From positions 620,001-684,000 of the forward strand of contig BAAIJX010000007.1 in NCBI GenBank assembly GCA_054600435.1: DNA of 64,000 nucleotides, read 5' to 3'. This DNA comes from Neophaeotheca triangularis. Its lineage: Eukaryota. Made by a program: the position numbers and the translations under genes. Within the stretch, counting starts at the first letter, position 1. The number at the start of each line of letters is the position of its first letter. This document shows, piece after piece, positions 11,924-42,700 of the stretch. The notes under the pieces were generated by a model. The model saw only the letters and a program-made list of their open reading frames with translations. It was not told where the DNA came from and did not search any database.

Positions 11924-14178
11924 CTACATATCAACTTCCCCATACAACCCCCCAGCTCCACTCCCAGCATACGAGGCCGAAGAACAGCAAGTCCTCTTCT
12001 TCCCGCCCATCTTACTAACCGGCAACCTGCCCGCCTGCGCCTCCTTGGTCCGAATGGCCGTGTTTGACTGCCAAAGCATACGCTGAGCTGAGACAGCGGC
12101 TGGTGAGGGTCCCACGTTACCGCCAGCACTCTCGTCGCTGGAGTTGGAAGACAGTGAAACGTCGTCGTCATCCTCGTCATAGTCTTCCTCTTCCAGCGCG
12201 ATGCGGATTTCTTCCTGCAGCTCGGAGCGCTTGTTGGCACTCGTGCGGCAGCGTTTGCGAGCGCTGCTATTGCTGCTGTTGTTCAGATGCTTGGGAGTGC
12301 TGGAGGTGGTGGATAGCTGTGAAGCGTGCTTGCTGTGTTTGTGGGGTGCATGGAGCGCCTTTTCGCCAACGCTGAAATCTGGTGGGCTCGACGTCATCTC
12401 TACATCGTCCATTATGGTGATGGGCTCTTGCGTGGTCTGTTTGTGAGCAGCAGGTTGGGCTTGCGCAAGTTGAGGCTGCTGCACCAGTCTACCGCTTCGA
12501 CATGTCGCCTGGCGAGCTAAGCAAGCTCGGTTGGGCGCTATGGACGAAGCGGTGGAGACTGTTGAGACTGAAGAAATGGACGACGCGCGAGAGGAGCGGG
12601 AGTTGTCGGACATCATTGACTCCGGACTGGAACCTTGCGAGGTCGAGCTGACAACAGACGGTCGTCGAGAGTCTGTACGGTATTTCTCGACGTCCATGGT
12701 GGTATTGGGGAACGTGTCGATGGCACAACGGCTAATGGCCTGTCTCTGCGCCGTACTCATTGCCGAGCACATGGATGGCCGTCGTGAGCTACACGCACTC
12801 GCTGCAGGAGTGGATGTTGCTACTGACGTTGGTGTGAGTCGCGGTGTTGGCAGAGGGCCCATGCGAGCAAGCGCTGGCGTAGGCGGTGCCATGTTGGCAC
12901 CAGGCTCCATTCGGGGGAGTGCCGTTGGTGTTGGGGTGCTCTCTTGCGAAGTCGAATCGACCTGCATAGCATCGAGCGGGCTTTTGTTGGGTGTGGTGTT
13001 TGCCAAAGGGGAAGCGAAGCCGTAGTTGGCTGGACATTGCCTCGTAGGGAAGCCAGAGTCGCCAGGGAGAGGCACCCTATCGAGCTCAGGGGTGAGGAGA
13101 GGAACGATACTTCTCCACGAGGGTTGCCCTGACACCGCGAATGCCTGACCTGGGGCTCCCGGCGGTTGCATGCTGGGAGTGTACCTCAAGACAATCTCCG
13201 TCCACCGCTTGAAGATGAGCTCAGGAAGATGAAGCTTCCAGCCAATCTTCGCAAGGAAAGTACGCTCGTTGGTGTTGATTTCGCTAACCTTGAGGCTGGA
13301 CATCTTGCTCCACGCCTTGGCGGAGTAATTGCGATCTTGCAAGTACTTGGAAGCCAGAATGAGCGCAGTCAAGAACATGCGACGCCCACACATGAGCGAG
13401 CGCGTCCCCGGGCAGTCTACCTTTTGCTCCTGTGTAAAGTCGCACCTCGGAACAAAGGGCTTGATCAAGACAAGGTAGTAAAGGGCAACTTGCAACGTCG
13501 AGTAGCTGGTGCGAGACCGTCGAAGAGTCTCCTCAATGTAAGTACGCAGTGGCAAGACGCCACGGCCAGTACCCCCATTTGCACCACAGGGAACAGAGAG
13601 CGGCCATATGACCTCAACCATCTGCGTAGCTGAGTCTACCGAGTAAAGTCGTCTTAGCACGATCCTGCAGCTGGCGGGGCACCGTTGTGATGTTCGGGAG
13701 ATGTATACTTACCAACAAGATTGTCGACGAAGTTGACCTTGCGGTCAGATTGCCGAACAAGTGGCGGAGGATTCTGTTTCCTGGGAATGGAGTTCCGGCG
13801 GAGGTTCTGTCCCTGCTCGAAAGGCACAGAGGTGACATCGGCATATGACCGACTCTGAACACCCTTGGCAGCATTATAGGGTAAAGCAGCAGGGCAGCCG
13901 AAGTTCAGAGGTGGGGCTTGTCCTTGAGCAGCTGCTGTCTTCCATTGCTGTGCTTGAAGCTGTGCCTGAGCGCATGCTCTGTCCCTAGCTTCCTCTTGAC
14001 TGTGTCTGAAGTCGCCAGGGATGGAGCTGGCGGCCGAGCTTTGAGATGATAGCGTAGTGTCATCGGAGAAGATGGAACCTTGCGAAGAAGGCACAGATGA
14101 AGTGATCGACGGCTCGTGCGCCAGACTCCCGCTATTTATCGCATGAGCGTAGCCGTTGTAACCTTCAACCGAGGTCAT
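11924..14178 (-). CDS. Pho85-type (PCL family) cyclin, Pcl5/Clg1/Pas1-like. Exons 14178-13713, 13635-11924
   Basis: Cyclin box IEETLRRSRTSYSTLQVALYYL...CGRRMFLTALILASKYLQDRNYSAKAWSKMS...INTNERTFLAKIGWKLH. Intron 13636-13712 (GTAAGT...TAG) joins FVDNLV/DSATQMVEVIWP. S/P/T-rich tail. Confidence 0.9.
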
Positions 14179-14271
14179 GCTGCGTCTTCCAAGTGTGGTA
14201 GTGTGGTCCAGTAGATAGTATCCGTGTGAGATTGACAGTGATGCGTTTGCCTTTCGGATTAAGAAAGGTCT

Positions 14272-14298
14272 TCAGTCGTGTGTAAGTCGTGCCAGCAT
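14272..14298 (-). other. Second short uORF (MLARLTHD*) upstream of the cyclin
   Basis: ATG CTG GCA CGA CTT ACA CAC GAC TGA; weak context (tatATG). Confidence 0.45.
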
Positions 14299-14493
14299 AT
14301 AAAGTAAACGTAATCCGACTCAGGGGTATCTCTTCCAAAAAAAATCAAATCAGGGGAATAAAACGGTATGGCGAAGGTGATATCTGTCCTTCGAATATTC
14401 CAGTCCGCGCGCGCACGCTTAAATCGATTCAAGTATGTGACTCTCTTCTCTTTCGTATGGAGGGCTATCGCAAAGTGGGTTTCTTTGTGATTT

Positions 14494-14586
14494 TTACCAC
14501 ATGGAGCCCTCGGCAACAGAGACGGTGGACTTGATGGAGGTTGCGCGGCTGACGAGGAATTTCGCGTATGTAGTGTTAGGGATCAT
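14494..14586 (-). other. Candidate uORF (30 aa, MIPNTTYAKFLVSRATSIKSTVSVAEGSMW*) upstream of the cyclin
   Basis: ATG ATC CCT AAC ... GGC TCC ATG TGG TAA. First AUG after about 600 nt of AUG-free upstream sequence; purine at -3. Confidence 0.6.
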
Positions 14587-16146
14587 TGCGCCGTCGCGTG
14601 TGGTGATTGAAAGGTGGTTATTCTACGTCTTGGTCGTCGTCAGAGGGGTAAGTGGAGATTCGAGAGTCGCGGTCGGAGGGATCAATCAGAGGGGGATAGG
14701 TTCTGGAATCGGTAGATTTGGCTTCAGGATGTATTAGACGGCGGCGCGGTCAGGTATTGTGGGTGCGAGGGTGTTGGAAGGGCAAGTTAATGCAGCCAAC
14801 AGAGATCCGTCCTCGCCTATGAATGGGTGTAGAGAGAGAGGTATGATGTTGGAGATGTCGACTTGGTTGTTTGTTGTTGGTGTTGTTACAAAGGAAGGTG
14901 GAAGCGGGCAGAAGGAGGCTGGGAGGGAGGATTGGTTGGATGGTTGGTTGGTTGGTTGGGTATTAGAGAGAGGGGAGAGATGGTGGTAGTAATATGTAGT
15001 AGCACTAGGTGGTCGTCGACAAGAGGTGATGTGATGTGAGTCGATCGGGTGGCGGAACCAGGCAGGCTGAGGCAGCGTCGGCGCTGGGCGGCAAAGCAAG
15101 AGTCACGCCAAAAGTCTCGAGGTGGAGGCAGCAAACGTCGCCACGTCCGGCTTCAGCCTTTGATGAGACAACCTGGACTTCCCGATAACTACCGTCCGGT
15201 AACTTGAGATTTTACTATTTTATTCCATCAAAGACGGGTGTGTGGAGGTGGTGGTGGTATTATGATTTGTCTGTCTGTCTGTCTGTCTGTCTGTCGTCGA
15301 TGGAAGATGAGGGGAAAAAGATGGTGGAGGGGGGTACTACTACTACTACTTACTGTCGGGTATGCGCTGTGCGAAGAAGCTCCTAGTGCTGTTTGTTGTT
15401 CCCTCTGCCCTCCCCTCCCCTCCACCTCATCATCGCTGGAGTCATACCTTACCTTACCTACATACTAGTTATTGCTAGTACCCGGCGTCACCTTACCCGA
15501 AACTACTAATTGTCTTATTAGCCCTCCGGCTAATCCTGCACTGACCATTATTGCCACCGACCGCCACCGCCACTACTGCCACTCTTTCTTTGGTCGGCCT
15601 CCGCATCCTCAAGTCTGCATTACCGAGCTGACAGCCTTCTATCCTTCTCAGGACCTCAAGGGTGGGAGGGGAGACGAGTGAGCTGTGACAGCAGCATATC
15701 CCCTTACTCGTGCCCACTATTTGCCACTACGTACCACACAAAAAGAGTGACACCCGATCGCGACTACTGTGCCACAAGCAGCAGTCTCACAAAAGCCTTT
15801 CAAAGGCTCGCGTCTCTGTCGACCAAAAAAAAAAAAAAAAAAGCCATCGAATTAGGCAACCAGCAGCTGAAGCACCCATGTATGCCGTCAGCTCGTAGAA
15901 GAACTCACGACAATCGCCCGGATACCACCTAACGCCACTGCCGTTCTGATGATTTATTATTATTACAAGCCCGAGACTTCGATCAGTGCTCCCGTCCGCC
16001 GAAAGATGGCGACATATACAAAACCTGTGAGGGCTTAAGCCCGCGTTCAGCGCTTCGTGTACAGCAGAAGCACCGCCACAGCTGGAACTACCTGGATCCT
16101 TCTCGACAAAGCCGGGGCCAGAAGCTTGCTTGAGCCGGCCAGCTCT

Positions 16147-37992: not shown

Positions 37993-39742
37993 TGGCTTCG
38001 CACTCCAGCGAGCGAACGAGAAACTTCTTCGACTCCCTGCATGTTCGTGGAGACCGGAAGAACTTGTTGGCGTTGTTAGGTAGTCCCCACTACTTGTGAG
38101 TCTATCTACTAGTACCTACCTAGGTAGGCATTGCACGCAAAATATCGGACATACAGAACGCGAGGCGCGTAATGACAACGCCGCCGGACCCGCAAGTGGC
38201 GTTCGAGGCGTCATGCTGGAGCTTTTTGTCAACGAAGATCTCGTTCGTGTGTCGGTAGGTATGCAGATGAGCGACTGCAAGGTTTTTTTTTTTGGTAGAA
38301 CATGAGCTTTTTTATGCATGCTTGTAAAGCTCGAGATGCAAGCAAAAGTGGATATTGTTTCTCCAGGTACCGCGACGCCTTTCATCACCTGGCTTCGCTG
38401 CCACCAAGACTGATGAGTGCTTGGACTGTAGTACTAGTATCCAGTGGATGCTTGGTGGGTACGACGTGCCGCGTTTTGCGGCAGCGCGATGGCGGAAATA
38501 AGGTAGGTAGGTAGGTACTGTGTAGGTGGCAAGGTGCCTGCCCTGCTGGACTGATGGTTAACAATTTGATTAAAAGGTTGATCGCTCTCAGCGAGATATT
38601 GATTAAGCGATCATTGCCTACCTAAGTGCGTGTTAAGACCTTTTAGTTGAACATACTTGCAGGTATTCAGTCTATTAGTGTGTACATACAGTAGTACCTA
38701 AGTTCCTACCGACCGAGCATCCACGTCGGTCACTAAAGACTTTCATGCCGCTGATTTTAGGTGATGTGCGTAACTCGTGTACAGTGGTCACTGTTGCTGC
38801 AGGTGCTGCCGTCGTTGTCGTAGCATGCATGTATGTCGCTGTCGCTGTTGCCGTCGCCGCTCCTCTCTCATCCACTCTACACAACCTTGGGAGATACCTA
38901 GGTAGCTAGCGCTCGCTCGGCCCTTTTGCTTGTCTGCACCTGCACCCGCACCTGCGCCTGCAATCCGTTGGATCGTTTGCAATTGCGTGGGATCTCTCGC
39001 CCTTTGCACCTTTCAATCGACACCCCCGCCTCGTTGCGTCTCAACTACTAGTCTACCTACCTACCACAGGTACCTTACTGCTACTACTTCATCACTCTCC
39101 CGCCGACCATCACCGCGATTCGGGGTATTGATCGCCATACCCATACACTCGTTTCGTGTTATTCAATCCGTTTCTGACTGAAGCTTTACCCCCCCAAGCC
39201 CGCCCTGCCTTCCCCCCCCAGGGGCCAGCCGTTTGAGAGCGAGCAGACAGACGGGTATCGGCGCTGTTTCTACCTTGACTACCACTACTACTACCTTACT
39301 ACTACGTTCCCCTCACACTACTTGTGCGTTCACTAGCACGAGCCTGTGACGCGGCGCAAGGCAGACGGGACATCTCACACATCGGCTTCGGCTTGGCTGC
39401 CACGCCGACGGACGTCCGCCATTCCACCACCAGCGCGCACGCATCAACGCCAGCAACCGGCGCCAGTCACGGTCCAACCCTACACTTTCATTCGCGCTGC
39501 ACCACCGCAACGCGCACCGACACCGACCGCCACACCGCCGGCTACACACATTGCTCACGAGCGAGAGCGCAAGAACGGTTCACAGCAGCGGCGTAGCGTG
39601 CGGAGGGAACAGGGCAAGCACAGTAACAGCCGGGCAGGACAAGCCGCTTGCAGGCGTAATACAACAGCGTCAGTCTCATCAGCCAGACGACGTACAATCT
39701 ACCGCGCGAGACTAGGAGTCTACCGCAGCGACACAGCAAGAC

Positions 39743-42700
39743 ATGGCGCCGACCACTCCTCGTCTACGCATTCTCTCAGGTCAGTGCGAAATAACGCTTT
39801 TCCCAAGCTCCCCTACTCGTGCAAACCCTACACAACCCCCGACCGTGCTCCACTTATTTGACTCGCCCGATCTGTCCTTCCACGGGGACGGCCTGCGGGC
39901 TGGGTTGAGAGAGTCTCGTCACCCGCCGCCGGGTTGAGCGAGACTGCTCGGGACTGCCAGGCAGATTCGCGAGCTGAAGCATTACTGCTGAACTCGGCCA
40001 ACATCACCACCACCACCATCACTACCCTCATCACCGCCCACCTCACCCTTGCCCAGCATTCAAGCTTCACCTCGCCTTCCTCCCACGACCGCTGTCATCA
40101 CCGTCATCCCATTTCGCACCCACTCTCTCTTGCCGCGGTCTTTTACCGCACCACATTCCTTTCTTGACCTTTTGTCGCCGCCATGGCCGAAGATCCCGAC
40201 TCGCTGACCCAAAGCGTGTGTACAGTGGGCGGCAATGCGGTTTCTGCTTTCCTCTCATGGCGCCTCTCTGCCACCAATGCTTGCGACGTCACACTGGTAT
40301 GGAAGAGTGGCTTTGAATCGGTGTCGCAATATGGCATCTCGTTCAGGTATCTTCACCAACCCTCCAATCAGGCCACACGTCGAAAACTAACCATTTCGTC
40401 AGATCCGACAAATTTGGCAACGAACGCTTCAAGCCCAGACATGGTACGAACGACCATCAGACATGGATGAAACTCATTTTCGATGCTGATACTGCTTGCA
40501 GTCGTGAGAACACCCGAAGAAGCCGCATCAGCATCACGCTCCTCCTTCGACTACGTTGTCCTCTGCGTCAAAGCGCTCCCTGATGTCTACGACCTTGCTT
40601 CCGTCATCGAGTCCGTCGTCTCGCCGCAACATACTTGCATTCTCGTCAACACTACTCATACCCTTGGTGTCGAATCATACCTCGAGCAGCGATTCCCAAC
40701 CAATGTGGTCCTCTCGCTAGTATCAGGAGCAGAAATCACACAGCTTGGAATTAGTGAATTTGAGCACAAAGGATCAAGCGAGCTCTGGGTGGGAGCGGCG
40801 AACAAAAACCCTGCGATACCAGCATCGATACAGACGGACATGGCGGAAGCGCTGGCAATGACACTGAAGAGTGGACAAGTGGAATGCGAGGTCTCACCGA
40901 ACATTCGGCAGCAACAGTACGAGCGCATGATTGGGTAAGTGACATCTTTCAAAGATCGTACAGGACGATGCTGACAACGCCCAGGCCCATTGCTTTCCAT
41001 CCCACGAGCGTCATGTTGGAGACACCGACTCACGCTGAGCTTCTGGAGAAGACAGGCATGCGCTCGCTCATTACTGGCGTCATAGACGAGCTTCTTGCGC
41101 TTGCCAGGGCACATGGGTGCGACTTTGGACCCGGTTTCAAGCAGCACACGATGGAGCAGATGATCCTTCCTTCGGACACCAGCAGCACCATGTACCAAGA
41201 TTTCACCGGCCGCAGACCAATGGAAATAGAGACATTCTTGGGCTCGCCGATCAAGCTCGCCCAAGAAGTCGGCGTTTCAGTGCCACGAATCGAAACCCTG
41301 TATGCGCTACTACACAACATCAACATTGTCAACCAAAAGAGACCTCAACAACCAGCTACTGCTCCTCCGCAAGCGCAGCAGCAGCAGCCGCCTCCGCCGC
41401 AAAGGATGTCTTCCGCACCTGGCGGACCTAATGGCGCCGGACCCGGCCCGAGGGGACCTATGTACGGCCCTGGACCAGGCGGCCAAATGAGAGGACCTCC
41501 GCCAATGTCCAACGGCATGCGTCCTGGGCCTGGTGGCCGCGCGCCTACTGCACCTGGTGGCCCGCCGCCTATGAGAAGAGGGCCCCCTTCAATGGGTGGG
41601 GGACCTCCACCTCCCCCTCGTATGCATAGCTCTGGCTACGGTCCCCGTGGTCCACCTCCGCCATCGATGCAACGCCGCCCTTCTATGGAGGGCAACGATC
41701 TCGAAGAGTTTAGTCATTTGATGCTTTATGATAACATGCCAGACGGTGGGATGCAAGATAGTGGTTATGGAGGAGAGCCAGGAGCTGCACCACCAGCGCC
41801 CGGGGAGTACCAGATGCGCGAGCGCGAGTTGGCACTGCGTCAGAGGGAATTGGCACTCAGAGAGCAAGAGTACAACATGCGACGCAGAAGAGGGCCCCCT
41901 CCACCGCCGCCTCAAGGGCCGATGCATGGTGGATACGATGACGATGACGACGAGGATGGGGCAGACTACTTTGATGGCATGGCTGGAGTACCTAGCATGG
42001 ATCCGGGGCAAGACATGGACGTTATGAGCGTTACTTCTAGGAGAACACGAAAGGCGCCAAGTGTCAGTCAGCTCCGGCACAACCCTGAAGCCATGAGCGG
42101 TGGAGGGCCGATGCGACAAAGTCGCAACCCTTTTAACAGGCCTCAGATGAAGAATCGTACGAGCGCACGCATCGCCGCGGATTTACCGAGTCTGCGCAGC
42201 AACCTCATGAACGATCCGCTCATGGGCTACTCGTCGGATCGATTCGGCAATGTCGATCGCATGAACATGGGCGAGTCTAGGACAAACTCGCTCACTGCTG
42301 AGCGCTTGAACGAGCTGCAAAGGGGAGGACCGTCGGGCCCTGGTGGTCCCCCTGGACCGCCGGGAGGACCAGGTTACGGCCCTCAAGGTGGCTACCCTTC
42401 AATGAGCAGGAGAGGAAGCCAATCGCCTGGCAATCCTCTGAGCCCTGGCCCGAGAGGAATGCCACGTCCCTCACCTCCCAACGGCTACGGCCCTGGTCCC
42501 GGTCCTGGACCAAATGGCATGAATGGCATGGGCCCGCCGCCTCCAATGCACAATGGCATGCAAAACGGGCGCCCCTCACCACCAAGTGTGAGGCAGCCTG
42601 TCCCCCGCCATCCACCAGGTCATGGAAACGCAGTAGCGCCTCAGCAAGTTGAGCAGCAAGTCGGGGTGAGCAGCCTTTACCCACCCAAAAGCGGCCCCCA

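Follow-up and report, generated by a model that had tools for sequence, protein, structure and literature searches.

A cyclin gene of Neophaeotheca triangularis is preceded by a 30-codon upstream open reading frame (uORF1), which raises the question of what evolution has preserved there: the encoded peptide, the nucleotides, or the position of the frame in the leader. The locus lies in a stretch of 64,000 nt (contig BAAIJX010000007.1, positions 620,001 to 684,000; hereafter the window), for which a sequence-only reading had proposed a conserved nascent peptide resembling the arginine attenuator peptide.

A conserved upstream frame in the cyclin transcript

uORF1 occupies positions 14586 to 14494 of the minus strand and encodes MIPNTTYAKFLVSRATSIKSTVSVAEGSMW*. 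It follows a long ATG-free stretch (15228..14586, 642 nt), the longest such gap among the 942 ATGs of the minus strand of the window; the plus strand holds a longer one of 910 nt. The start context is strong, G occupying position -3; the nested ATG (14502) gives rise to MW*, and 315 nt separate the uORF1 stop from the cyclin ATG at 14178. Thus far we reproduce the sequence-only reading, including the coordinates and peptide of the frame after its ATG-free stretch, the purine at -3, the nested ATG-TGG-TAA, and the spacing to the cyclin start. Apart from Met and Trp, 20 of the 27 codons end in C or G (hand count; the background is C-rich).

Removal of the cyclin intron restores a frame of 725 aa, and exon 2 matches Pfam PF08613 above cutoff. 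Over 155 aa, the protein is 72-84% identical to proteins named PHO85 cyclin-5 or G1/S cyclin pas1, and its closest named relatives belong to Teratosphaeriaceae, Mycosphaerellaceae, Cladosporiaceae, and Dothideales. There is no second close copy in the genome, which encodes two distant Pho85-type paralogs (L082, L083). We assign the protein to the Pho85 cyclins, Pcl1,2 subfamily, as Pcl5/Pas1/Clg1-like, the Pcl5-specific label being taken from database names only. The previous Pcl5/Clg1-type call agrees with the cyclin box and the named relatives, which point to the Pcl5/Pas1 type. According to passages of PMC6078057, A. nidulans AN9500 best matches Pcl5, and ClgA (AN4984) is Clg1-like.

Table 1. 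Coordinates of leader and cyclin features in the window, with the basis of each assignment.
Feature	Position	Strand	Basis
ATG-free 5′ leader upstream of uORF1	14587..15225	-	Longest minus-strand ATG gap; RNA-library contigs
uORF1, 30 codons, strong context	14494..14586	-	Start, frame, and approximate length conserved; peptide not
Hairpin 5′ arm inside uORF1 (nt +24 to +72)	14515..14563	-	MFE and centroid of 230-nt fold; pairing probabilities; co-variation
Inner stem-loop enclosing the uORF1 stop; window-specific form of variable apex	14460..14511	-	MFE, centroid
Hairpin 3′ arm, ending in conserved GACTGG core	14393..14454	-	Fold; ortholog consensus helix
uORF2, 8 codons, T at -3 (weak context), 120 nt before cyclin ATG	14272..14298	-	ATG listing
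Small hairpin just after uORF2	14250..14268	-	RNAalifold on 21 leaders; window fold
Unpaired conserved motif, core TCTAYTGGA, 30-45 nt before cyclin ATG	14207..14225	-	21-leader alignment
Cyclin coding exon 1	13713..14178	-	ORF; spliced frame
77-nt GT-AG intron	13636..13712	-	Splice joint in one polyA RNA contig, run X3
Cyclin coding exon 2: Pho85-type cyclin box and disordered tail	11924..13635	-	PF08613

Several ortholog contigs lack a CDS intron that is present in near-identical genomic partners, while their uORF and leader are unbroken. Two of these comparisons (L032 with L029, L075 with L078) concern intronless contigs that carry the uORF, both arms of the hairpin described below, and the CDS together. 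As the intronless contigs retain uORF and leader, the element is located on the mature mRNA. Spliced contigs, which reach up to 550-750 nt upstream of their own uORF, span uORF, hairpin arms, and CDS, so that uORF1 falls within the cyclin transcript as had been presumed. In the window, RNA-library contigs of possible DNA origin cover 14101-14510 and 14520-14920, and those of run X1, which may include DNA, extend to 15240. A leader intron, as in riboswitch-like splicing, was rejected on the basis of seven genomic-versus-intronless comparisons, in which no leader gap of at least 40 nt appears. At 14337, downstream of the hairpin, one base is missing from a T run of the leader in contigs of three of the four RNA runs, reflecting either a length polymorphism or an assembly slip.

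Orthologous leaders were collected by a scan of metagenome contigs. From the best 80 of 319 confirmed loci, 20 with less than 850 nt upstream of the cyclin box were dropped, and 57 of the remaining 60 contain an AUG uORF of 24-33 codons at the equivalent place; these uORFs were chosen by eye from ATG-ORF listings, the length range being a selection criterion. They lie 165-654 nt ahead of the cyclin start. In the three exceptions, the sequence begins inside the uORF, begins at its stop, or is a rearranged copy. With six duplicates set aside and a 90% filter applied, 43 non-redundant sequences including the window remain. All 43 have a purine at -3 and, within the range used for selection, 24-33 codons, and the uORF1 ATG provides the sole invariant columns in an alignment of 37 sequences. 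A comparable ORF occurs in 35% of shuffled leaders and on 30 of 43 antisense strands. Since such ORFs are common by chance, the case for uORF1 rests on its homologous position. The loci range from Dothideomycetes to Helotiales and include Cladosporium- and Aureobasidium-cluster members, Helotiales-like sequences, and, by a quick tree, one unnamed clade; none of the sampled leaders derives from Neurospora, Aspergillus, or Sordariomycetes. On this comparison, we regard uORF1 as deeply conserved in start, frame, and a length window of 24-33 codons.

A hairpin built on uORF1

What is conserved in the leader is an RNA hairpin that holds uORF1 letters in one of its arms, a feature overlooked in the sequence-only reading. 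From about +27, uORF1 nucleotides pair with a segment beyond the stop codon, the 3′ arm, located about 60-150 nt past the stop, and the slow-evolving letters of uORF1 co-vary with this arm. The commonest core is CCAGTC with GACTGG, and lineages with quite different arms remain complementary. Folding is stronger than in shuffled sequences (z < -2) for 42 of 52 uORF1 segments vs 4 of 52 CDS controls. Moreover, as a partner of the uORF core, its own 170 nt downstream outperform the upstream region (41/41) and the CDS (42/43), and this pairing beats shuffles (z < -2) in 35 of 43 sequences.

Pairing is specific to the cognate partner. Of 27 loci whose cores are less than 70% alike, 12 have the cognate arm as their best partner, where one is expected, and the permutation test of cognate against non-cognate pairs, with row and column effects removed, yields z -11.7; in the 17 loci less than 60% alike z is -9.0, neither covariation test being tree-aware. 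RNAalifold on 18 non-Capnodiales orthologs, the window not among them, finds a 9-bp long-range consensus helix with two-sided changes at four pairs and 12 G-U cells vs one A-C cell. An extended structure of 18 pairs is 86% paired, a level reached by 0 of 500 shuffles and compared with 27-42% in slid controls; it was hand-drawn from the tested sequences, and the test leans toward it. The helix starts between +20 and +33 from the AUG in 37 of 41 helix-forming loci (median +27). Duplex energy, however, favours the sense strand in only 13 of 43 sequences (0 of 43 in the control).

RNAalifold finds no structure on the 37-sequence alignment, in which clades are out of register. In L016 and L017, the long-range helix is absent from the 300-nt fold, and L053 is doubtful. 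L053 and L055 form a long-branch cyclin pair: L055 retains uORF and hairpin, and in L053 the uORF is of the expected size but a matching helix is missing. In a Cladosporium subclade (L029, L032, L034, L036, L037), an earlier stop cuts uORF1 to 24 codons; this shortest form terminates just past the hairpin 5′ arm.

Single changes in close pairs often break predicted base pairs, and the duplex is therefore best described as imperfect and loosely held, with a firm core. Across 18 sister pairs, one-sided changes break predicted base pairs in 103 cases and keep them in 48 (58 kept expected), while two-sided changes number 37 vs 15 expected, of which 24 keep pairing (18 expected). A conserved switch between two states, in which the 3′ arm would pair with a partner further downstream, was tried on 18 loci and rejected (z +0.5, p 0.69). 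The UGA(C/G)GG motif of S. pombe, as presented in passages of PMC7498311, was discarded as well; some clades have a similar stretch in the 3′ arm, where it is paired, and the window lacks it. Rfam 15 yields no match in window positions 13900-15600 and, for seven ortholog loci, one sub-threshold match only (L052).

Probable translational control by uORF and hairpin

We consider it probable, with some reserve, that the leader of this Pezizomycotina Pcl5/Pas1-type cyclin contains a cis-acting translational control element, in which a strong-context uORF runs through the 5′ arm of a hairpin that is long and imperfect. This layout probably gates the amount of cyclin. With its base some 27 nt downstream of the AUG, where the front of a 48S complex would lie, the hairpin would block plain scanning. 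Ribosomes that initiate at uORF1 would unwind it and terminate in its apex, and a fraction of them could resume scanning over the freed 3′ arm and reinitiate at the cyclin AUG; in one clade, uORF2 would act further downstream as a leaky trap. Cyclin output would be low and would depend on the state of the initiation factors (ternary complex, eIF3, Ded1-type helicase), and by analogy with yeast Pcl5 the element might tune Gcn4/Cpc1 turnover. uORF1 would have to cross the arm (at least 24 codons) and yet permit reinitiation (at most 33), so that its length would be bounded and its content free. Passages of PMC1964767 describe reinitiation as poorer after longer uORFs. The median helix start of +27 is near the +23 to +26 optimum for structure-assisted initiation, which in the relevant passages of 10.1101/2024.02.23.581729 concerns CUG starts, AUG starts being rather insensitive to downstream structure. 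The full version of this model, a ribosome-opened RNA gate across filamentous ascomycete classes with uORF1 as an obligatory activator selected for length and not for sequence, is put forward tentatively, as possible rather than probable. If it holds true, cyclin supply, and hence Gcn4/Cpc1 turnover, would directly report elongation and reinitiation capacity.

The same parts could operate in the opposite sense. As in uAUG-ds elements, the hairpin might merely reinforce an inhibitory uORF, holding scanning complexes at the uORF1 AUG and keeping cyclin synthesis low. Under stress, a helicase would melt the hairpin, uORF1 would be bypassed, and cyclin would be produced via leaky scanning and not via reinitiation. 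We judge this reading unlikely. The helix start speaks for it, as START/uAUG-ds elements are characterized by structure about 17-32 nt after the start codon and the median here is within this range; further, such a mechanism has been shown in Arabidopsis immunity with Ded1/DDX3X-like helicases (passages of 10.1101/2023.05.09.540021). Against it, the purine at -3 in every one of the 43 sequences leaves little room for leakage, and the narrow range of 24-33 codons is left unexplained. Gating by reinitiation and bypass by a helicase share the same components, and sequence alone cannot separate them.

The window's own hairpin ranks as a weak member of the conserved set. The segment folds no better than shuffles (z -0.3 and +0.4; +0.6 for 431 nt), a fold of 550 nt, in which the 3′ arm favours other partners, leaves long-range pairing at 0.06, and the cognate partner ranks only 9 of 27. 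These values would suit a hairpin that in this genome has degenerated or given way to another fold, with the 3′ arm paired to uORF2, leaving a plain inhibitory uORF. We regard such a loss as rather improbable, because local folds retain the conserved register (14563-14515 with 14454-14393) at high probability and the alternative pairing is not conserved across the 18 relatives mentioned above.

We consider a role of the hairpin outside initiation very unlikely, be it as a Dicer substrate (microRNA-like precursor) or as an RNA-binding-protein or decay element, with the uORF mainly triggering nonsense-mediated decay of a short-lived mRNA. The duplex is indeed long and imperfect, and the sub-threshold Rfam match of L052 is to a miRNA precursor (31.8 bits, gathering 99), in the apical region and not in the main stem. 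The spacing of the helix from the AUG is fixed, though, and unlike a guide RNA the arm sequences diverge freely between clades.

To our knowledge, conserved structured RNAs are rare in eukaryotic leaders, and we know of translational control of this arm of the starvation response from yeast PCL5 only. The cyclin likely acts on the negative-feedback arm of the response to amino-acid starvation. In S. cerevisiae, PCL5 belongs to the Gcn4 targets, and the cyclin it encodes tags Gcn4 for degradation. The PCL5 leader contains translated uORFs under GCN4-like control that depends on eIF3 and on the integrated stress response, as stated in passages of 10.1101/2023.05.11.540079, which substantiates the earlier premise of post-transcriptional PCL5 control. 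Both leaders are long, precede a Pcl5-type Pho85 cyclin, and contain two AUG uORFs, repressive ones in yeast; the yeast leader differs by two additional UUG uORFs and a 29-nt poly(A) tract, and its description in these passages includes no hairpin. A poly(A) tract of this kind is absent between 15228 and 14178 in the window.

The resemblance to uAUG-ds/START elements lies in a stable structure at a similar distance just downstream of an upstream AUG. In the consulted parts of 10.1101/2023.05.09.540021 and 10.1101/2024.02.23.581729, these are general features of plant and human mRNAs, whereas the cyclin element is a single long-range duplex that spans the stop codon and keeps its covariation across two fungal classes. 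The fungal amd and SDC motifs (passages of PMC5640933) likewise are conserved RNA structures in 5′ leaders that overlap or work with a uORF. In contrast to the cyclin element, amd encodes a conserved peptide of 6-8 residues ahead of an amidase-like gene, and SDC is an 11-bp hairpin. With delayed reinitiation in GCN4/cpc-1, as outlined in parts of PMC1964767, the cyclin leader shares an order of uORFs in which the first is permissive and another lies downstream, as well as an irrelevant peptide; there 4-6 codons are typical, whereas uORF1 comprises 24-33 codons within a duplex. The GCN4-type combination of a very short permissive uORF1 with a strong inhibitory downstream uORF is not what we find, uORF2 being weak in context and limited to one clade.

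The word cyclin does not occur in the main texts of two screens for structured RNAs in fungi (PMC5640933, PMC8216456), and the literature searched, which left out most subscription journals, contained no description of a uORF-hairpin cyclin leader. uORF control of this cyclin family is already known; with respect to these sources, the conserved uORF-hairpin arrangement is new. Its natural compensatory variants are available for clean tests of uORF-hairpin cooperation.

The uORF1 peptide and further leader elements

It is highly improbable that the nascent uORF1 peptide stalls the ribosome at the stop codon on a metabolite cue. The arginine attenuator peptide of arg-2/CPA1, encoded by a similarly long uORF that also lies in a regulated fungal leader, is conserved in amino-acid sequence, and this sequence is needed. 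uORF1 differs, with a dN/dS of 1.0 (pN 0.239, pS 0.239; 17 disjoint pairs) vs 0.05 for the cyclin box in the same pairs (pN 0.055, pS 0.565); the disordered cyclin N-terminus, again in these pairs, has 0.28. Differences are spread evenly over codon positions 1/2/3 in uORF1 (115/120/115), as opposed to 212/102/964 in the cyclin box. This ratio speaks against a conserved uORF1 peptide; the sequence-only reading had named a value below 1 as its check. Synonymous divergence is 0.24 in uORF1 vs 0.57 in the cyclin box, indicating that the nucleotides are constrained. Split by structure, dN/dS is 1.26 in the stem and 0.83 outside, and the latter may hint at faint peptide constraint near the C-terminus. 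(PMC5640933 mentions the arginine attenuator peptide of arg-2/CPA1.)

Some features of the alignment seem to favour a peptide: loosely recurring residues (P-V near codon 9-12, K-S, G-x-x-W/C at the end), a frame in which start and stop remain aligned in 18 pairs, and W or C as last residue in 26 of 43 sequences. P-V, however, corresponds to a fixed CCA GTC in the nucleotides, which pairs with GACTGG. The final residue is W in 14 sequences, C in 12, L in 8, and another one in 9, the nested Met precedes the last codon in only 6 of 43 sequences by hand reading, and truncation to 24 codons is tolerated. Within uORF1, 10 of 26 gaps are multiples of three and the rest compensate one another, vs 20 of 132 in the flanks, some of these gaps perhaps being alignment artefacts. 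The peptide matches no Pfam family, and a search of 1.84 billion representatives gives a single match, to a 1337-aa protein in 13 stretches (E 5e-4). A BLOSUM search of the orthologous leaders with the peptide scores scarcely above background (best 58, most 25-41). Of the conserved uORF with a control role that had been envisaged, the conserved uORF and probable translational control are retained, and the conserved nascent peptide is dropped. The case also carries a warning, as a uORF that forms one strand of an RNA helix may for that reason appear conserved in its peptide.

uORF2 had been missed in the earlier reading. Of 21 aligned Capnodiales-type leaders, 20 have an ATG with a pyrimidine at -3 located 104-134 nt upstream of the main ATG and mostly opening 6-8 codons; it is absent or different in most other clades. 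The small hairpin that follows it is the only consensus helix found by RNAalifold on these 21 leaders; together with the unpaired motif (14207-14268, minus strand), it is a possible protein-binding site. Further upstream, GACTCA/TGA(C/G)TCA words, presumably Gcn4/Cpc1-like by consensus, recur about -20, -350, and -600 from uORF1 in orthologs, some of them within the transcribed leader. Seven of 16 loci have full Gcn4-type sites within the 1.5 kb that precede uORF1, six of them near -590 to -720, and the window has only 6-mer matches there (15100-15105 and 15037-15042, minus strand). By their sequence, these words hint at Gcn4/Cpc1 control.

Elsewhere in the window, positions 38833-40230 of the plus strand hold the longest ATG-free stretch (the 910 nt noted above), and the gene there looks Svl3/Pam1-like. 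The ATG that follows at 39743 opens 12 codons ending at a probable splice donor. A further ATG in the same frame, at 40183, may sit within a long intron; alternative N-termini are possible.
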